Of a DNA stretch of 33,568 bases, positions 2,129-25,677 are shown in pieces (the stretch's first letter is position 1; each line of letters starts with the position of its first letter). The notes under the pieces were generated by a model, which was not told the origin of the DNA, ran no database searches, and was given only the letters and a program-made list of their open reading frames with translations. The stretch comes from a virus. A program made the translations under genes and the position numbers. The stretch lies in IMG/VR virus record IMGVR_UViG_3300045988_145346, one strand, 5' to 3'.

Positions 2129-2548
2129 TCAAACCTCCCCAGTGCTACCAAAACCGCCTGTACGCTTTCCATTTGCGTTGTCATCGTCTGTTGTAAGGTA
2201 TTTGACAAATACCCCTTGCATTATTCTTTGACCTTTAGAAATGGTTACAGGCTCTTTTGAGATATTCATAAATAAGCCTTTAAATTCTTGCGGATAGTAA
2301 TCTGAATCTATAATTCCTACTGAATTAATCAATGCAATGCCACGCTTAACTGGATTACTTGAACGGTCGTATAATTTCAATACTTCATCATCACCAAGTT
2401 GAACAGCTAGCCCAGTGCTTACCATTTTAATTTCATCAGGTTGAATCGTAACTGTTTCACTTGCTGAAATGTCATATCCTGCGCTATGTTCTGTCGCTCG
2501 TTCTGGAATAGTCGCATTTCCGTCTAGTTTTTTAAATCCTCTTTTCAT
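2129..2548 (-). CDS. dut: dUTP diphosphatase (dUTPase).
   Basis: AGYDISASE...GIIDSDYYP...RGGFGSTG motifs. Confidence 0.85.
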   Translation of the reverse strand: MKRGFKKLDGNATIPERATEHSAGYDISASETVTIQPDEIKMVSTGLAVQLGDDEVLKLYDRSSNPVKRGIALINSVGIIDSDYYPQEFKGLFMNISKEPVTISKGQRIMQGVFVKYLTTDDDNANGKRTGGFGSTGEV

Positions 2549-3117
2549 TCTCCGTCCTCCACAGGAATCTGTTCATAGCTCCCAGTTTGCATGCTGTCGA
2601 TTTCTTGCTGGGTGAATTTACAATCAATAGTAGATGGTTTTTCCCCTTTTTCAACTCTCAAATGATTTAGTGGACCATCAGAATGTTTAATTGTAAACCA
2701 ATCGTCGTGTTTATCTGTTTTACAAAAATCAATGTGCTTCAAATAGAACAGCTGCGGTTTTTCGACCCTGAAACCAATGAGCAGAGCAGTTAACCACGTT
2801 TTTTGATGATTATCAATCCAATCTAATTCCTTTTGATGTACAGGATAGCTTGCTGTATAGTTAATATGCTTTCCATCTTCAGGGGTACCAAAGGTATTGA
2901 TTAACTTACCAATGAACTCAGGCACGACTGGCAGGGCTTGCTGTGGTTTTGCGTTACTTAGTTTACTTTCAAGATAATTGATATATTCATCTCGTTCTTG
3001 AATACACTTGTGAGCTTCCCTATTTTTGTTAGTATAAAACTCTACGGCATTGCTTGGTAAAGGCTTGATACTATCTTGAGTGATATTGCTAATCGGTCTT
3101 TTCATTTCTTTAGTCAT
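2545..3117 (-). CDS. DUF1642-like phage protein (190 aa).
   Basis: Length and position (before dUTPase, after YopX) fit the lactococcal DUF1642 family. Confidence 0.45.
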   Translation of the reverse strand: MTKEMKRPISNITQDSIKPLPSNAVEFYTNKNREAHKCIQERDEYINYLESKLSNAKPQQALPVVPEFIGKLINTFGTPEDGKHINYTASYPVHQKELDWIDNHQKTWLTALLIGFRVEKPQLFYLKHIDFCKTDKHDDWFTIKHSDGPLNHLRVEKGEKPSTIDCKFTQQEIDSMQTGSYEQIPVEDGE

Positions 3118-3505
3118 TTTTCGTGTCCTCTCTTAATAATTCAGGGTTCTCATAGATATTTCCGATGACTTCATAATTCAATTTATTTGTACTCGCCCAG
3201 TATTTTTGCCGATATAACCTATTTCCTTCAAAAATAATTGAATAACCATATTTTGGATAATATTCAAGATAACCGATTTTGTCATTAGGAGATAAGAATA
3301 TAGCATGCAGTTTTAAAATGTCACCTTCATAAATTTCAACGCCATTTTTATCTTTTATTCCTGTTGACTGCATAAATTCAACGTCTTCATCAGCTTCAGT
3401 ACGTAAATGGTCAAAACGATAATTAATTCTATCTTCGTAATATTCAACCTCTCCATAACTCATACGCTCATCTTGTTTATCCCAAGCTCTTAATTTTGGT
3501 ATCAT
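3110..3505 (-). CDS. YopX-family protein.
   Basis: C-terminal VIGNIYENPELL, typical of YopX. Confidence 0.7.
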   Translation of the reverse strand: MIPKLRAWDKQDERMSYGEVEYYEDRINYRFDHLRTEADEDVEFMQSTGIKDKNGVEIYEGDILKLHAIFLSPNDKIGYLEYYPKYGYSIIFEGNRLYRQKYWASTNKLNYEVIGNIYENPELLREDTKND

Positions 3506-4071
3506 AATCCTAATTCTTCTTTGCGTGCTGCTTCGATTGCCATTTGCGCTCTGATATTTCTTCGCAACCTACGTTCTTCTTTTGTTTCGTGTTTTCTTCG
3601 CTCTTTTTCTTTTGTTCCAATAAGTTCTTCTTCTTGTGGGACTGAAAGCAATGGAAATCTTTTTCTAGTTTCTGCTTCGTTTAAAATCGCATGTTTTCTT
3701 GTTTTTCTGTAATAAAAAGCGTGCTTACCAACTTGGATATATGAATATACGTTACTTTTGCTAATATTTAAAAATTGAGAAATTTCTCGAGCAGTTCCTG
3801 TCATTATGAATTCCCCTTTGTCATAATAATCATAAACAGAAGCGGGAAGTTTGCGCTCTTCTTTTTTCTTTTGTTCCATAAGCTCTTTAGTTTTTTCTTT
3901 ATTTAAAATAGCGTTCTTATATTTAGGGTTAGCTTTTTTAGGGTCTTTCCCATTCTTTATCCATAATGAGATAGAGCTGCGGGAAATATCAAAGTAATCG
4001 GCTATCTCGTCAATTGTTCCGGTTGCTTTTTTTTCGCCTTCAATATAAGCATCAAAGACTTTAACTACCAT
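3502..4071 (-). CDS. DNA-binding protein with two predicted helix-turn-helix motifs and a basic C-terminus.
   Basis: GTIDEIADYFDISRSSISLWIKNG and GTAREISQFLNISKSNVYSYIQVG, followed by a Lys/Arg-rich tail. Confidence 0.45.
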   Translation of the reverse strand: MVVKVFDAYIEGEKKATGTIDEIADYFDISRSSISLWIKNGKDPKKANPKYKNAILNKEKTKELMEQKKKEERKLPASVYDYYDKGEFIMTGTAREISQFLNISKSNVYSYIQVGKHAFYYRKTRKHAILNEAETRKRFPLLSVPQEEELIGTKEKERRKHETKEERRLRRNIRAQMAIEAARKEELGL

Positions 4072-20317: not shown

Positions 20318-22429
20318 CTAAAAGTCATAAGCGGCTTTTTGCCATTGTAGTTGTTGTTGTCGTGCAATTTCACGTTCAGAAGGGTTTTCTTTCACAACAA
20401 CAGTCATTGGAGCGTGTATCTCCGTTTTTGATTGTTCTTGATTTAAAGCATCGACTGGAATGTTTCCAGCTATTTTTTGAGCAGCGATAATATTTGAGTT
20501 GCTGCCAATGTTCAATGCAGAATCCCATGAATCGTTATTTAAGATATTAGTATCAATTTCATCAGTAATTGCTGATTGAATTTGTTTTGCTATCCCAGAA
20601 ACATTTTTTTGAACAGCTTTAAAGTTTTCCATCAAACTGTCATTAAATCCACCCATAATAGCTTCACCAGCTGGAATTAGTAGTTTTCTATCATAACTAA
20701 TTGGTCCTTTATGTTCTTTAATCCAATCAGCAATTCCACCTACAAAACTTTTTACATTTTCGAATCCTGATTTGAGGCCACCTAAGAATCCATTTATAAT
20801 CGCAGAACCCGCTTCAATGAGCGAATCAGGTACGAACACTCCAACTATTGCTCTAAGCAGTTCTCCGGCTGCACTTCTTATATCATCTTGACGACTACTT
20901 ATGTTTTTAGCCAAATCTCTTATTAATTCAATACCAGCATCCATCAATCGACCTGATGCTTGGCCAATTCCACGAACCATTGCGTCAACTAAATTCATTG
21001 CAGCATTCACGATATCCGGAATTCTATTGGCGATCCCTTCTAAGAACTTGGTAATCAAATTAACTGCAGCATTGATGATTTTCCCTAAATTATTGGCAAT
21101 TCCATTAACAAAATTTGCAATCAAGGTAGCAGCTGCACTAATGATATCTGGCATTCGAGCGGCTAACGCATTTGTAAATTTAACCATTAAATTTACCGCA
21201 GTGTTGACGATTTTCGGCATATTTTGGGCAATTACTTGAGCGAAATTCAAAATGATATTTAACGCTTGTTGTGATACTTTACTAATATTATTGGCAATTC
21301 CCTGCATGAAGGTCAGCAGAAGATTCATTCCAGCTTGTAGTATTTTTGGTAAATGAGAATTGAGTGCAGTCAACCAAGTCACAATCAATTCTGCTGTATT
21401 TGCAACTAACGAAGGAATTTGAAGTGTGATCCCTTGAAGTAACGCATTGATCAGAGCTGCACCCGATGCGACTATTTGTAAAGCAGAAGCAGTTAATGCC
21501 CCGATAAATGCCACAATAATTGTCGTGGCAGACGTAGCTATTGTGGGAATAAGTAGCAACATAGCTCCTGTAAATGCTGTAATCAATTGCGCTGCCGCTA
21601 GAGTTAGCTGCGGCAATCCTTGTGCTAGGCCTGCCATAAACCCGGCAATCACTTTCAATCCTCCGGAAACAATTCCTGGCAACGCTGCTGCGATTGCTGT
21701 TAAGATTCCCTCTAGAGCAGTACCAAATGTTGAACCGAGCTTGGGAGCATTTTGCGCCATACTTGAAGCTAGTTCTTCAAATGATTGGGAAATCTGACTC
21801 ATTCCGCCTTTTATCCCTTTGTTTTGAAATGCATTAGCAATCATACCAACTACTTTCAGAACTAGTCCAGCTGGTCCTAGCAATGCACTAAAAGCCACTT
21901 GGAGAATTTTTAAACCAGCTGTTGGTAAATCAACTTTTGATTTTAGGTTTGAAAAAGTATCCCCTAATTTATCGAATCCTTTAAATGAACCCGTAATCTT
22001 TTTTTCAATATCCCGAAATGGCTCTAAAGCTGATCCTAATAAATTGCCGATTCCTTCTTTCACATATGGAATGGCCGCTTTGATAAATGTGACGACCGCT
22101 CCAGGAAGAGCCTTTAAAATATTTCCTACCATTGGAATAAAGTTCTTGAATAAGAATGTTGATGTTGTTGACGCCAACGCTTTCAATGGTCCTTGCAAAT
22201 CACGGCCTAGTGATAAGTTCCCCAGAACATTAGACATTGCAGATTTCATTGAATTAAATGACCCACTAAATGTTGTTGATGCTTCTTTCGCAGTTGTGCC
22301 TGTAATGTCCATTTCTGTTTGGATTGCATGAATCGCTTGCGTGATATCTGAGAAGTTTGAAATATCATACTTTTGACCAGTAAGCTTTTGAGCATCAGTC
22401 AAGAGTCGTTGCATTTCTTCTTTTGTACC
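20318..22429 (-). CDS. Tape measure protein, exon 4 (703 codons plus stop).
   Basis: Begins GGTACAAAAGAAGAAATG ([16 protein letters not shown]...). The 14 codons the ORF track places upstream (22430..22471) are the intron 3 terminus. Confidence 0.8.
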
Positions 22430-23355
22430 CAGTTGTACCCCTTGTTTCCAAGTATTTAAAAGGACTTGCATTTCTGCAAATCCTCAGGGCTTAGACTATA
22501 TCTTTATCAAAATCTTTTTCAAAATACCATTCATAACCTTTGTGTGTTTTTAATTTTTTGTGGCAACATTTAGAAATGCTTGTCACATCGAACCCATCAT
22601 TTTTTGCTAATATCTTTGCCTCGTAAAGTTTTGTTTTTCCTGTTTTTCGTTCATATTGTATGACAGGTTTAGCTGTTTTACTGTTTTCTGCAAACTTTCC
22701 AAAACTTGGATGTTTTTCGCCTCTTGGCATATTATTTCTTAATCCATTAATTTTAGCATGATATAAATTTTCTTTTGATGTTGCCCATTCAAGGTTGTTG
22801 ATATTGTTATTTTGTTTATTGCAATCTATATGGTTAACTTGTGGTTTGTTTTCAGGATTATCTATAAAATGGATAGCTACAAGCCGATGAATAGATAAAA
22901 ATTTTCGCTTGTTATGTTTCCTTAATCCAACTTGTAAATATCCATTATGTTTAAGCGTAGGTTTTATTAGTTGCCCAATTCTTTCATGTACTCCGTCATG
23001 TCTTGTGACACTTCTAACGTTTCCATTGTCGGACACTTGATAATATCCTTCAAAACCTTTAATATCTTTCCAAATTTCCATATTTACCACCGTTCCTTTG
23101 TTACTTATATTTTAACAAAATCTATGGTGGTTTGCAATTATAATTTTGATAGTAGGCGTTTCGAATGTCGTATTAATAGACACCCTACGAGCAAAGCTCT
23201 AGTCGTTGAACCTTCCTCTTTACAGAGGCTTGGCATAGGATTGTCATAGGATTCAGCCCTTAGATGTTCCCTATTAGCACATACTTATTTTTTATTAGTG
23301 TATGCACACCCATTAATAAAATGGTTAACCTACTTTTAATACGGCAATGTAGTTT
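22430..23355 (-). mobile_element. Group I intron 3 in the TMP gene (926 nt) carrying an HNH ORF.
   Basis: The 5' exon TACGGT pairs with the internal guide sequence GCCGTA. The core is homologous to introns 1 and 2 (GGGTGTGCATAC...GACAATCC...AACGACTA...TAGACTATATC). The intron ends on G, 8 nt after a GGGG run. Confidence 0.75.
22491..23081 (-). CDS. Intron-encoded HNH homing endonuclease 3.
   Basis: ...VNHIDCNKQNNNINNLEWATSKEN.... AAAGGAAC ribosome-binding site before the ATG at 23081. Confidence 0.8.
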   Translation of the reverse strand: MEIWKDIKGFEGYYQVSDNGNVRSVTRHDGVHERIGQLIKPTLKHNGYLQVGLRKHNKRKFLSIHRLVAIHFIDNPENKPQVNHIDCNKQNNNINNLEWATSKENLYHAKINGLRNNMPRGEKHPSFGKFAENSKTAKPVIQYERKTGKTKLYEAKILAKNDGFDVTSISKCCHKKLKTHKGYEWYFEKDFDKDIV

Positions 23356-23383
23356 ACCGTACCCCAGTTTCAAGTTATCTAAC
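23356..23383 (-). CDS. TMP mini-exon 3 (28 nt: G TTA GAT AAC TTG AAA CTG GGG TAC GGT, encoding (M)LDNLKLGYG).
   Basis: In-frame continuation between introns 2 and 3. It restores the ...[23 protein letters not shown] motif. Confidence 0.7.
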
Positions 23384-24248
23384 CAAATATACCCCCATTT
23401 TCATGGTATTTAAAAAGACCCACAATGCGTAGGTCTTAGGGTTTAGACTATATCTTCAACTAAATTAAAAACCCAGTTTTTCTTTTTACCTTTAACGTAG
23501 GTTTTTCCATATACAAAATTAGATTTGTTGCATTTGAAATAATTTGCGGTCGAATCTCTTGAATCAAATATGATTTCCTCGTTAGTGACAGTGTTGAAAG
23601 CTCGAACTTTCTTCTTTCTGTTTTCTATTCTGCTATGGTATCCATGACCGTAAGCATTTTCGGAAACGGTGACCCATCTTAAATTGGAAACGTGATTATC
23701 TTGTTTGTTTCCGTTTATATGGTCTATTTGAGGTAGATTATTAGGGTTATCGATAAAATGCTCACCGACTAACCTATGTATATATAGAGGTGTTGTTTTT
23801 CTACCTAACATAACTTGGCAGTATCCGTCTTTTCTAACAGAAACCTTTAACACCCTACCCGTTTTCTTGTTGCGAACTTCACCGTTTTCACTAACCTCAT
23901 AATTTGGTTTATTTTCAATTTCTTTCCACATATTAAAGCCCCCTTTTGATATTTTAATTATAGCATCTTAGGGGTTTAAATACAACTAAACTTACATGTA
24001 CATTTGTTAGTTGGTATGCACTTCCAACAACGTGCTAATAGTTGCCGTACTCGGTGACGAACCGATAGTCGTTGAACCTTCCTCTTTACAGAGGCTTGGC
24101 ACAGGATTGTCATAGCATCAGCCTTAGATTTTCCCTGTCAGCAAAATAATTTCAATAGCCATTTCCTGCTATATTTTTATTTCACACCGCTAGCTAGCGT
24201 TCACATACACTCGTTTGCATAATCACTTATGCAACGGACATTAGATTT
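23384..24248 (-). mobile_element. Group I intron 2 in the TMP gene (865 nt) carrying an HNH ORF.
   Basis: Homologous core and terminus (...GGGGGTATATTTG). The 5' boundary is inferred from reading-frame continuity, and the P1 pairing is weaker. Confidence 0.65.
23443..23931 (-). CDS. Intron-encoded HNH homing endonuclease 2.
   Basis: ...IDHINGNKQDNHVSNLRWVTVSEN.... GGGGG ribosome-binding site. Confidence 0.8.
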   Translation of the reverse strand: MWKEIENKPNYEVSENGEVRNKKTGRVLKVSVRKDGYCQVMLGRKTTPLYIHRLVGEHFIDNPNNLPQIDHINGNKQDNHVSNLRWVTVSENAYGHGYHSRIENRKKKVRAFNTVTNEEIIFDSRDSTANYFKCNKSNFVYGKTYVKGKKKNWVFNLVEDIV

Positions 24249-24325
24249 ATCGTGTAGTTCGATTTAGCAAAACCTTGATAAGCATTTTGAATATCACCAA
24301 CATTTGTACCCATCTTATTTGAGTT
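24249..24325 (-). CDS. TMP mini-exon 2 (77 nt encoding NSNKMGTNVGDIQNAYQGFAKSNYT plus AT).
   Basis: Own translation of the minus strand between the introns. Confidence 0.7.
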
Positions 24326-25239
24326 CCTAGATACCCCCACTTTCGTGGTATTTAAAAAGACCCACATGCAGTAGATCTTTAGGGAGTAGACTATATCATA
24401 TTGGCAAATTCGAAAAGATGACCTTTGTGTATTCCACCGTGATTACAACACCTTGATACTTCTGATTTTGTAAAACCATCTTTGACAGTTTCAACAATGG
24501 CACTGTATCTTTTCGTTTCATTTGTGATAATGTTAGTTGCTATAACTGGTTTTGCTTTTTTACTTTCAGCACCAAATTTACCATAATTGAAATGTTCTTT
24601 ACCGCTTATATGTTTTGTCAACCCATTCTTATAAGCATGTATAACATTATCTTGAACAGTAACCCACTCTAGGTTATCTAAGCTATTATTTAGCTTGTTC
24701 CCGTCTATATGGTTAACTTGTGGCAAGTTATCAGGATTCGGTATGAAATATTCAGCGATTAGTCTGTGGACGTAAAATTGTTTTCTTTTTCTGTTAATCG
24801 AAAAAGTAACCCTGTAATAACCATTAGGCGCAATATCTGGATTTAGCGTTTTGCCTTTCCAAGACCTTGTTCTACCAATTTTATCAGTTACAGTTCTGTC
24901 CTTACTTCTAATCTCTCCATTTGACGATATTTCATAAAATTCTTCGTACCCTTTTATTTTTACCCAGTTCATATTTAATACCCCCATATTTATTCTTTGT
25001 ATGGTTGTATTATATCACAAATTTGTTATTTTTACCAATCGCACCGCTTCGAGTTATGTATCAATAATAACTCTACTTCTAAATAGAATAGTCGTTAAAC
25101 TTTCCACTTTCGTGGCTTAGCACGGGATTGTCTTCGCCTGATAGCGTTAAGAGTTTCCCCGTCAGCACATACTTATTTTTTGTTTGCGTATGCACACCCT
25201 TGATAAGGTTCAATGCGTTTTAATCGGACTGATTAGTTA
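24326..25239 (-). mobile_element. Group I intron 1 in the TMP gene (914 nt) carrying an HNH ORF.
   Basis: The exon end TCGGAT pairs with the internal guide sequence GTCCGA 10 nt into the intron, with a U.G pair at the splice site. The intron ends ...GGGGGTATCTAGG. Confidence 0.75.
24391..24987 (-). CDS. Intron-encoded HNH homing endonuclease 1; the likely start is the ATG at 24972.
   Basis: ...VNHIDGNKLNNSLDNLEWVTVQDN.... Confidence 0.8.
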   Translation of the reverse strand: MGVLNMNWVKIKGYEEFYEISSNGEIRSKDRTVTDKIGRTRSWKGKTLNPDIAPNGYYRVTFSINRKRKQFYVHRLIAEYFIPNPDNLPQVNHIDGNKLNNSLDNLEWVTVQDNVIHAYKNGLTKHISGKEHFNYGKFGAESKKAKPVIATNIITNETKRYSAIVETVKDGFTKSEVSRCCNHGGIHKGHLFEFANMI

Positions 25240-25677
25240 ATCCGACATATCAACAATTGCTTGGTTTGATAAATCTGCGGCCTTAGCTGTATCTCCGTTC
25301 AATGATTTAATCATTGATGCAGAAAAACCTGTTACAGTTTCCATATATGCATTCGCAGACATACCAGCCGTTTTATAACCTTCTGTTGCATATTTTTTTA
25401 CTTTATCTGCATTATCTTTAAATAGAGTTTCGACCCCACCTAATGATTGTTGTAAATCAGCTCCTTCAGAAATTGATGAAGAAATTAATTTACCAAGTGC
25501 TGCTCCTGTTGCTACCACACCAGCTATTGCGGCGACCTTTAAGGCAGAACCAATTTTTAGACCTGCGCTATTTCCTGCCGACTCAGCTTCTGGGTCTAAT
25601 ATCCCAGACATTGAACCTGATATTCCTTTGGCAGATGGCATAATTTGCACATAAGCTTGTCCTAATTCTGTTGCCAT
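25240..25677 (-). CDS. Tape measure protein exon 1 (146 codons, ending ...AIVDMSD).
   Basis: GGAGG ribosome-binding site. A hydrophobic Ala/Gly-rich N-terminus is typical of TMPs. Confidence 0.8.

Follow-up and report, generated by a model that had tools for sequence, protein, structure and literature searches.

Three related group I introns with predicted HNH endonuclease genes in the tape measure gene of a lactococcal phage

How could a phage make a full-length tape measure protein (TMP) from a gene that is interrupted three times? This question is raised by IMG/VR virus record IMGVR_UViG_3300045988_145346, whose 33,568 nt are the whole stretch of DNA that we analyzed (hereafter, the window). 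The window is the genome of a Lactococcus phage of the P335 group, a temperate-type siphophage, and its TMP gene runs from 25677 to 20318 on the minus strand, with three introns inside it. The most probable explanation (we would put it at about 0.88) is that the gene is interrupted by three group I introns that are paralogues of the td-like (IA) type, each with its own HNH gene; that these are spliced out to give the mRNA for an 884-aa TMP; and that they spread by endonuclease-driven homing.

The exons and the predicted product

As the reference for the boundaries, we used the intron-less TMP gene of Lactococcus phage 50101 (2532 nt). With blastn, nucleotides 1-438 of this gene align to 25677-25240 of the window, 445-515 to 24319-24249, 520-543 to 23379-23356, and 544-875 to 22429-22098. 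When these blocks were extended by reading the junctions, we obtained exons of 438, 77, 28, and 2112 nt (2109 nt plus the stop codon):

25240..25677, minus strand: TMP exon 1, 438 nt, aa 1-146; its 3' end is GAT, with U at the 5' splice site
24249..24325, minus strand: TMP exon 2, a 77-nt mini-exon, NSNKMGTNVGDIQNAYQGFAKSNYT plus the first two bases of a Met codon
23356..23383, minus strand: TMP exon 3, a 28-nt mini-exon, G (the third base of the Met codon) plus LDNLKLGYG
20318..22429, minus strand: TMP exon 4, 2109 nt plus the stop codon, aa 182-884

Exon 1 is 99.3% identical to nucleotides 1-438 of the 50101 gene, and the two mini-exons match nucleotides 439-515 and 516-543. Exon 4 matches nucleotides 544-875 and 2038-2532, with a mosaic between them. 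The exons are collinear with the 50101 gene, with no indel at any junction. The introns lie after nucleotides 438, 515, and 543 of the coding sequence, so all three insertion sites fall inside 105 coding bases. Joining the exons yields 2655 nt with a single ORF of 884 aa and one terminal stop, and the computed junction peptides are DMSD-NSNK, NYTM-LDNLK, and LGYG-GTKEEM (hyphens mark the junctions). An earlier reading of this DNA (the original prediction) had proposed the same junction peptides, an 884-aa product, and splice sites that give exons of 438, 77, 28, and 2109 nt; the intron-less gene and the computed spliced sequence bear out all of these.

The joined sequence resembles known TMPs across the junctions: the N-terminal 330 aa of the spliced protein match PHROG TMP families, and the matches run unbroken through the three junctions (E = 2.5e-93 to 1e-39). 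The gene order DUF5361 - TMP - Sipho_tail also holds, and searches of the TMP against Pfam and NCBIfam gave no match. Both mini-exons have counterparts in metagenomic contigs. L015 and L050 both have the 28-nt exon, flanked by an intron on each side, with seven synonymous codon changes and one non-synonymous change. In L067, a homologue of the 77-nt exon, with its protein motif conserved, is flanked by two ORF-less introns. Because the PHROG match is unbroken and the changes in the 28-nt exon are mostly synonymous, these comparisons indicate that the mini-exons are translated.

The three insertions as group I introns

The introns and their main elements are as follows:

24326..25239, minus strand: intron 1, 914 nt, group I, last base G at 24326
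~25217-25032, minus strand: 5' core of intron 1 (P3-P4-P6-P7-P7.2-P3'-P8 5')
24407-24326, minus strand: 3' core of intron 1 (P8 3', J8/7, P7 3' UAGUC, P9 hairpins)
25228-25223, minus strand: internal guide sequence of intron 1, GUCCGA, which pairs with exon UCGGAU
23384..24248, minus strand: intron 2, 865 nt, group I, last base G at 23384
~24208-24006, minus strand: 5' core of intron 2
23464-23384, minus strand: 3' core of intron 2
24234-24215, minus strand: P2 hairpin of intron 2
24239-24237, minus strand: weak P1 of intron 2, GUC, which pairs with exon GAU
22430..23355, minus strand: intron 3, 926 nt, group I, last base G at 22430
~23333-23144, minus strand: 5' core of intron 3
22512-22430, minus strand: 3' core of intron 3
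23345-23340, minus strand: internal guide sequence of intron 3, GCCGUA, which pairs with exon UACGGU

The introns had been described as sharing a conserved core. Three sets of motifs are indeed common to all of them (GACAATCC..TGCYAAGCC, GGAARGT..AACGACTA, and GATATAGTCTA), but the block GGGTGTGCATAC...AAAAAATAAGTATGTGCT is found in introns 1 and 3 only; at this position, intron 2 has another hairpin. The element GATATAGTC, which had been assigned to P7, corresponds to J8/7-P7. In introns 2 and 3, J8/7 and the 3' strand of P7 read (A)AGAUAUAGUCUA, which is the consensus of the Rfam model RF00028 ('UgAAGAUAUAGUCuaa'), and intron 1 has the variant AUGAUAUAGUCUA.

We aligned 29 cores, trimmed of their ORFs, and analyzed them with RNAalifold plus the P7 pseudoknot. 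In this alignment, 97.9% of cells pair (versus 33-42% with slid partners), 34 of the 56 pairs show compensatory changes on both sides, and the covariation score is 0.607 (versus 0.156 in shuffles; none of 500 shuffles reached 0.607). Covariation was found in P3, P4, P6, P7.2, P8, and the GNRA hairpin of P9, where the P8 pairs of the ORF-containing members depend on our fixed-length trimming. P7 (GACUA/UAGUC) is paired in all 29 sequences and is invariant, and is therefore uninformative for covariation. As for the subgroup, P7.2 covaries in 7 of 7 pairs and P7.1 hairpins were seen by eye. Atypically, all three ribozymes have a two-hairpin insertion between the 5' strand of P3 and J3/4-P4, which the Rfam consensus lacks. 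The introns may resemble the td intron of T4 (IA2).

When the whole window was searched with RF00028 (Intron_gpI, curated threshold of 50 bits), there was no match, and the full-length model scored below the threshold on all three introns; an ORF of 0.5-0.6 kb in P8 splits the core of each. On sub-ranges, the covariance check that had been suggested gave partial matches: intron 2 scored 39.5 bits (E = 5.8e-9; P4-P6-P7 only, 24138-24066) and intron 3 scored 32.6 bits (E = 6.3e-7; 3'-truncated, 23337-23128), both below the 50-bit threshold, but intron 1 had no match, sub-ranges included. Six ORF-less relatives, a set without the intron 1 type, all scored above the threshold: L015 (67.8 bits), L008 (60.3), L066 (68), L016 (73.7), L010 (62.5), and L013 (60.8). 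L015 contains an ORF-less near-twin of intron 3 (at 2729-2995), and L066 has an ORF-less relative at the intron 2 site.

A profile built from these six relatives (nhmmer) identified exactly three 5' cores and three 3' cores in the 33.5-kb window, all on the minus strand, and no further core elsewhere in it, so the matches are not fortuitous. The 5' cores had E = 1e-44 (intron 3), 9e-34 (intron 2), and 8e-25 (intron 1), and the 3' half of intron 1 had E = 1.5e-3. The assignment of intron 1 to group I, in which all helices pair, rests on homology (the sequence profile) and covariation. Overall, the covariation, the partial Rfam matches in the window, and the full matches to ORF-less relatives support, by comparative analysis, the proposal that the three insertions are related group I introns.

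All three upstream exons end with U and all three introns end with G; collinearity with the intron-less gene fixes the positions of the terminal G's. As judged by eye, P1 has six pairs, including a terminal U.G, in both intron 1 and intron 3, and 3-4 conserved pairs in intron 2 (GAU/GUC and one A-U pair). Compared with intron-less alleles, the exons differ by synonymous changes (TCT to TCG, ACC or ACA to ACG, and TAT to TAC) that create or strengthen P1 pairs of introns 1 and 3.

The HNH endonuclease genes

Each intron has an HNH gene in the loop of P8:

24391..24987, minus strand: HNH gene of intron 1, 198 aa from the ATG at 24987, P8 loop
23443..23931, minus strand: HNH gene of intron 2, 162 aa, P8 loop
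22491..23081, minus strand: HNH gene of intron 3, 196 aa from the ATG at 23081, P8 loop

All three proteins exceed the Pfam thresholds for both NUMOD4 and HNH_3 (E = 5e-17 and 4.5e-12 for intron 1, 3.5e-12 and 1.1e-9 for intron 2, and 1.9e-17 and 1.3e-8 for intron 3). The intron 1 protein, which was the one of the three that we compared to solved structures, is similar to I-HmuI (PDB 1U3E; E = 1.7e-15 over residues 6-194). For this gene, a start at the ATG at 24972 would give a better alignment to the paralogues. These results support the claim of one HNH homing endonuclease per intron, and we predict that all three are I-HmuI-like NUMOD4+HNH enzymes.

The ORFs were originally said to read through GATATAGTC. 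This is correct for intron 2, whose ORF continues through P8 3', J8/7, and P7 3', and for intron 3, where the same elements encode the C-terminus (KDFDKDIV*), but in intron 1, the ORF ends at a TAG inside GATATAGTC, with its last codons overlapping P8 3' and J8/7. The exact proteins were found in 44 (intron 1), 328 (intron 2), and 43 (intron 3) blocks of the collection. Versions that lack the ORF or have a decayed one are known for each intron type, and contig L008 retains a decayed remnant of the intron 3 ORF.

Relatives and probable mobility

Intron 1 is precisely absent from phage 50101 and from L068 and L070, two metagenome contigs whose flanks are 99.3-99.7% identical to the window. In contigs of the L068/L070 type, intron 3 is replaced by an r1t-type intron near site 3. 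The breakpoints of these near-isogenic contigs coincide with the predicted splice sites; for instance, the alignment to L068 and L070 stops exactly at 25240. Introns are also inserted at the site of intron 2 in phage 38502, in Str-PAP-1 and Javan271, and in many contigs of IMG/VR. Exon changes cluster at the insertion sites. From these clustered changes, and from the presence/absence polymorphism between 99%-identical genomes, we infer homing. The identical trio occurs in many independent metagenome assemblies, where it is joined to two different variants of exon 4, which speaks for the viability of phages that carry it. A search of 50,697 phage records did not find the trio in any of them.

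A proposed mechanism and its alternatives

We infer that the trio is spliced. The late transcript would hold all three ribozymes. Each guide sequence would pair with the 3' end of the preceding exon and form a U.G pair at the splice site; guanosine would be used for the 5' cleavage, and the exons would then be joined after the terminal G of the intron. Removal of all three introns would give the mRNA for the 884-aa TMP. Each endonuclease gene in a P8 loop would have its own ribosome-binding site and promoter-like sequence (the region has 17 promoter-like matches versus 11.8 +/- 3.8 in shuffles, so there is no enrichment). If a relative with an intron-less TMP allele is co-infecting or resident, the enzymes would nick or cut that allele close to the insertion site, and repair from the intron-bearing copy would transfer the intron along with flanking exon sequence. 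The three sites are within 105 bp, and therefore the trio probably travels as one co-converted block.

We also considered whether the TMP gene might simply be broken by three free-standing HNH genes, with no splicing and with separate fragments of 146 aa and 717 aa in use. ORF finding in the window does yield these two ORFs, and public annotations of r1t, 38502, and Str-PAP-1 divide the "tape measure" into separate CDSs and show the HNH genes as stand-alone. But this would leave unexplained the covariation of a structured RNA around each HNH gene, the Rfam group I matches, and the U...G boundaries. Furthermore, the 77-nt and 28-nt fragments are conserved in frame although neither has its own start codon or ribosome-binding site, and the intron-less alleles are exactly collinear. 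We consider this explanation very improbable. Another alternative, which is quite unlikely, is that these are genuine group I introns but that at least one of them, most plausibly intron 1 or 2, splices poorly, so that the gene is impaired, the phage is defective, or a protein cofactor from the host or the phage is needed. The lack of a direct RF00028 match for intron 1, the short P1 of intron 2, and the atypical insertion near J3/4 in all three introns would fit with this. On the other hand, all invariant core positions and all covarying helices are intact in the three introns, synonymous exon changes have preserved P1, and the mini-exons are under purifying selection. Also, the trio is found repeatedly in many independent metagenomes; the contigs are phage-sized, their structural genes are intact, and either of two TMP variants follows downstream.

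If the introns are spliced normally, some mRNAs might nevertheless skip exons: joining exon 1 to exon 4 would drop 105 nt (35 codons) in frame and give a shorter TMP, possibly with a second tail length. The mini-exons do add up to a multiple of three (77 + 28 = 105 nt), the three cores are homologous with identical P7 and J8/7, and there are precedents in Twort (a 23-nt exon and similar IA2 introns) and in an engineered Tetrahymena construct with a 24-nt exon (PMC10136302). However, a hybrid ribozyme would be poorly paired because the three introns have different P8 and P3 strands, and the 35 residues that would be lost are the most conserved part of the N-terminus of TMP, so we view skipping as unlikely. 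It is similarly doubtful that the trio is a single 2.8-kb homing cassette, in which any one cut co-converts all three introns, combined with cross-reaction of the ribozymes that skips both mini-exons, 105 nt in frame. If this were true, the phage would make a TMP that is 35 residues shorter and have a second tail length. In contrast to these alternatives, the preferred explanation remains splicing of all three introns, with homing by their endonucleases.

Comparison to known systems

The arrangement was originally called exceptional, which is overstated given the precedents in Twort orf142 (PMC10136302), in Bastillevirinae (PMC11878797), and in the TMP genes of Bacillus cereus prophages (PMC2504315). 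A trio of introns in TMP is an instance of a known phenomenon: TMP introns have been published for B. cereus prophages and for phage r1t, and Bastillevirinae have up to three introns per gene (PMC11878797).

In Staphylococcus phage Twort, the tail tube gene orf142 has three group I introns and a 23-nt mini-exon (Landthaler & Shub 1999, summarized in PMC10136302 and PMC11878797). As in our phage, one tail structural gene has three group I introns, at least two of them with similar IA2-type ribozymes, and a very short internal exon (23 nt versus 28 nt). Unlike in Twort, the gene is TMP, the phage is a lactococcal siphophage of temperate type, and each of the three introns has its HNH gene intact. 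Twort has been shown to splice these introns and to skip exons, while here splicing is predicted from sequence and skipping is hypothetical.

In prophages of the B. cereus group, the introns TMP-IVS1, IVS2, and IVS3 occupy three alternative sites in TMP genes, with up to two of the three sites filled per gene in the strains described there (Tourasse & Kolsto 2008, PMC2504315). These introns resemble ours in several ways: they target several alternative sites in the conserved part of the same gene, they are homologous IA-type introns adapted to different sites through P1, they are variably present between related prophages, and their homing endonuclease genes decay. The differences are that in the window, three sites within 105 nt are filled at once, each with an intact homing endonuclease gene, and that the host is from another clade.

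The intron of the SPO1 DNA polymerase gene, with I-HmuI (1U3E), is another NUMOD4 and HNH gene inside a phage group I intron, but the host gene is different, and I-HmuI is a characterized nicking enzyme whereas ours are predicted from sequence. Other relatives are in the same phage group and the same TMP gene, with exons 95-97% identical: r1t (ORF40/41/42), proPhi7, C41431, and 38502 each have a single group I intron, with its HNH ORF, at this hot-spot, where the window has three. The intron of 38502 is at the site of intron 2 and is ~72% identical to it. The r1t-type intron is inserted after nt 537, just 6 nt from site 3; its ORF is in P6, not P8, and its P3-J3/4-P4 region is ordinary.

Predicted exon structure of the tape-measure gene

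Over just 24% or so of its length, the window is 95-99% identical to the P335-group Lactococcus phages 50101, 86501, phiLC3, 63301, and r1t; the remainder is a mosaic that is related to phages 63301, phiLC3, and 86501. In these phages, the gene that matches 25677-20318 (minus strand) is annotated as tail length tape measure protein (TMP) and is flanked by a DUF5361 chaperone-like gene and by Dit. The TMP gene of phage 50101 is 2532 nt and uninterrupted, and its blastn alignments to the window are collinear.

Blocks of the 50101 TMP gene in the window (blastn)
nt 1-438: window 25677-25240, minus strand
nt 445-515: window 24319-24249, minus strand
nt 520-543: window 23379-23356, minus strand
nt 544-875: window 22429-22098, minus strand
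nt 2038-2532: window 20812-20318, minus strand

When we read the junctions on top of these blocks, we obtained exons of 438, 77, 28, and 2112 nt, which are separated by three insertions.

Insertions in the TMP gene
25239-24326, minus strand: intron 1, 914 nt
24248-23384, minus strand: intron 2, 865 nt
23355-22430, minus strand: intron 3, 926 nt

Joining the exons gives a single ORF of 884 amino acids, and the predicted spliced protein (AIVDMSD/NSNK, then SNYTM/LDNLKLGYG/GTKEEM) aligns to 50101 without gaps at the junctions. The figures of the original prediction, which had proposed a TMP of this length split by three introns, were thus all correct. The spliced protein has no matches in Pfam or NCBIfam. 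However, PHROG families for TMP match its N-terminal 330 residues in single stretches (residues 21-313), and because these matches are unbroken, the mini-exons appear to be used in the TMP. In contigs L015 and L050, too, the 28-nt exon is flanked by a pair of introns; there, it differs from the window by seven synonymous codon changes and one nonsynonymous change. A 77-nt exon lies between two ORF-less introns in a Tissierellia MAG (locus L067).

In all three introns, the last base of the upstream exon is U and the last base of the insertion is G. Differences between the window's exons and intron-less alleles mainly adjoin the insertion sites. The changes nearest to each splice site are synonymous (TCT to TCG, ACC or ACA to ACG, and TAT to TAC), and they add P1 pairs or make them stronger. 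This outcome is expected from co-conversion and likewise from selection for splicing.

The annotation should be corrected to one 884-residue TMP, instead of two TMP fragments and three stray HNH genes. The same kind of misannotation affects the public records of r1t, 38502, C41431, proPhi7, Str-PAP-1, and Javan271. In the records of r1t, Str-PAP-1, Javan271, and loci L003, L004, and L007, the intron-split TMP is broken up into CDSs that are named "tape measure" or "minor tail," with stand-alone HNH genes.

Evidence for group I introns

Rfam did not report a group I match in the entire window at the gathering threshold, or in 22300-25400 at E ≤ 10, because an ORF of 0.5-0.6 kb splits each core. 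Running Rfam's group I models on each intron, as suggested with the original prediction, gave partial matches for two of the three: in sub-range searches with RF00028 (threshold 50 bits), intron 2 scored 39.5 bits (E = 6e-9; P4-P6-P7 only), intron 3 scored 32.6 bits (E = 6e-7; truncated at the 3' end), and intron 1 had no match.

A search of IMG/VR with a pattern for the core identified 59 loci. The distance between the two strands of P7 is bimodal across these loci: 57-145 nt without an ORF and 575-833 nt with one. ORF-less relatives score 60-74 bits on RF00028, which is above the threshold. Among them are L015 2729-2995, with a core almost the same as that of intron 3, and L066, which occupies the intron 2 site. 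We used six ORF-less relatives that were validated on RF00028 to build an nhmmer profile, which found three 5' halves (E = 1e-44, 9e-34, and 8e-25) and three 3' halves in the window, and no further match anywhere in it.

The 3' element that the original prediction compared to the T4 td intron matches the RF00028 consensus of J8/7 and the 3' strand of P7 (introns 2 and 3 have AAGAUAUAGUCUA, and intron 1 has the variant AUGAUAUAGUCUA). The other blocks described as common to the three introns are shared as well, with one exception: GGGTGTGCATAC...AAGTATGTGCT is found in introns 1 and 3 only, and intron 2 has another hairpin in its place.

We then aligned 29 cores (the three introns and 26 relatives), with the ORFs removed by fixed-length trimming. 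RNAalifold independently recovered P3, P4, P5, P6, P7.2, P8, and a terminal GNRA hairpin. Once the P7 pseudoknot was added, 97.9% of cells pair, versus 33-42% if the partners were slid, and 34 of 56 pairs have changes on both sides. The covariation score was 0.607, compared to 0.156 in shuffles, and none of 500 shuffles reached it. P1 can be drawn with six pairs for intron 1 (UCGGAU/GUCCGA) and for intron 3 (UACGGU/GCCGUA); the P1 of intron 2 is weaker (GAU/GUC). These introns may belong to subgroup IA2; their splicing is predicted, and their P10 pairing is putative.

We rejected the "standard" P3 next to J3/4, which is non-canonical in Rfam's own alignments; covariation favors an upstream strand. 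In the three introns and their relatives, this 5' strand of P3 is, unusually, set off from J3/4-P4 by two hairpins, whereas in r1t-type introns and in the Rfam consensus, the two elements are adjacent. The intervening sequence consists of UGAAC, then one hairpin, the invariant GGUGUG, and another hairpin, which is variable. In relatives with this insertion, Rfam's consensus P3 is flagged as non-canonical.

Two-hairpin insertion (columns 9-76 of the alignment of 29 cores)
25211-25163, minus strand: intron 1
24202-24139, minus strand: intron 2
23327-23275, minus strand: intron 3

We also considered other kinds of elements. Inteins are rejected: the insertions begin with or soon meet in-frame stop codons, and they have their own ORFs. 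Group II introns are rejected as well, because the insertions encode no reverse transcriptase and have a group I core. Finally, the three group I introns could have arisen by recent tandem duplication of one intron, but their ribozyme cores are only 62-67% identical and their endonucleases are only 38-44% identical (pairwise). Thus, they are old paralogs instead of recent duplicates.

The endonuclease genes

The HNH ORFs of introns 1, 2, and 3 encode 198, 162, and 196 amino acids, and all three proteins contain NUMOD4 and HNH_3 domains. The intron 1 ORF matches I-HmuI (1U3E), the intron nickase of SPO1 (E = 1.7e-15). The proteins are predicted to be active endonucleases that would promote homing. 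Each ORF lies in the loop of P8, and its final codons encode the 3' strand of P8 and J8/7, plus the 3' strand of P7 in introns 2 and 3. The intron 1 ORF has two in-frame ATGs (24972-24987). The second (24972) follows a GGGGG and lines up with the positions at which the other two endonucleases begin. This protein is probably 193 amino acids instead of 198.

Promoter-like sequences precede the HNH ORFs, but they are not enriched over shuffles, so independent transcription of the endonuclease genes is a guess. Some relatives of introns 2 and 3 (L008 3786-4064, L018, L020, L029, L033, L034, and L042) have a partly deleted HNH ORF in P8, and others are cleanly ORF-less. This is consistent with the cycle of gain, decay, and loss that homing endonuclease genes go through.

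An insertion hot spot in the TMP gene

Across relatives, a conserved stretch of about 105 bp in the TMP gene holds at least five insertion sites.

Insertion sites (coordinates of the 50101 TMP gene)
438: intron 1
~459: Str-PAP-1 intron A (82 bits on RF00028)
515: intron 2, phage 38502, Str-PAP-1 intron B, Javan271
537: r1t, proPhi7, C41431, second intron of Javan271
543: intron 3

Str-PAP-1 has two introns, and so does Javan271, whose two introns are separated by a 22-nt mini-exon. In a TMP-like gene of the Tissierellia MAG (L067 4872-5579, JAUMZM010000023.1), an intron of the intron 1 type and one of the intron 2 type, both ORF-less, lie in tandem with 77 nt between them. Thus, neither this intron family nor its sites are confined to lactococcal phages; both reach well beyond them. 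A pattern that runs from the 3' end of intron 1 through the 77-nt exon into the 5' start of intron 2 matched nothing in IMG/VR and only one case in the GTDB representative genomes, which is double and ORF-less.

Nearly isogenic metagenomic phages have different combinations of introns at the hot spot. ENA contig L069 matches the window at 100% identity across 8.5 kb. Two other ENA metagenome contigs, L068 and L070 (equivalent to 28846-19445), are 99.3-99.7% identical in the flanks, but they lack intron 1: the alignment stops exactly at 25240 and restarts near 24319. They retain intron 2, and in place of intron 3 (after nt 543), they have an r1t-type intron with a 186-residue HNH protein after nt 537. 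These two sites are 6 nt apart, and the introns may be mutually exclusive. As a small, naturally occurring system of selfish elements, the hot spot could be used to examine how homing endonucleases compete with and exclude one another, as well as co-conversion between them.

We traced the three introns together (the trio) by exact look-ups of their HNH proteins. The 162-residue protein of intron 2 is found in 328 collection blocks; about 44 blocks have the protein of intron 1, and about 43 have that of intron 3. Every sufficiently long contig with the intron 1 or intron 3 endonucleases contains the complete trio, which is joined to two variants of exon 4 (717 and 648 amino acids). Thus, the trio is a circulating haplotype, which argues that it splices well enough for the phage to be viable. 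Comparing L073 and L079 to the window shows one three-intron N-terminal module with two different C-terminal parts, which implies that the TMP gene has recombined downstream of its introns. Many metagenome contigs (L075-L077 and L083-L085) stop either right past the HNH gene of intron 1 or about 150 nt upstream of that of intron 3; the probable cause is that assembly breaks down at polymorphic introns or where the ribozyme cores repeat.

Comparison to known systems

The TMP gene is also the target of published introns in prophages of the Bacillus cereus group, which have IA1 and IA2 introns at three sites, with P1 fitted to each site; in the strains described, two of the three sites are filled per gene (PMC2504315). 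Twort orf142 is described as a phage tail gene with three group I introns, a 23-nt internal exon, and exon skipping (PMC10136302; PMC11878797), and polymerase and terminase genes of Bastillevirinae have up to three introns (PMC11878797).

The trio was absent from all 50,697 phage records that we searched, and our literature search found no paper that describes it. It is a fresh instance of a known phenomenon, and the element is not of a new kind. This example is compact, as it combines a 28-nt exon with three homing endonuclease genes that are all intact, and it could help to explain how tandem ribozymes a 28-nt exon apart fold and splice correctly.

Another, putative triple-intron structural gene is in L025 (IMGVR_UViG_3300029787_002084; 2212-3508, minus strand), with three ORF-less RF00028 matches (72.8, 74.6, and 62.1 bits) within 1.3 kb. 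By eye, the ORF fragments that they split resemble a major capsid protein (MAVPSNTREVHSAIGVREDLANVIYDISPTT...).
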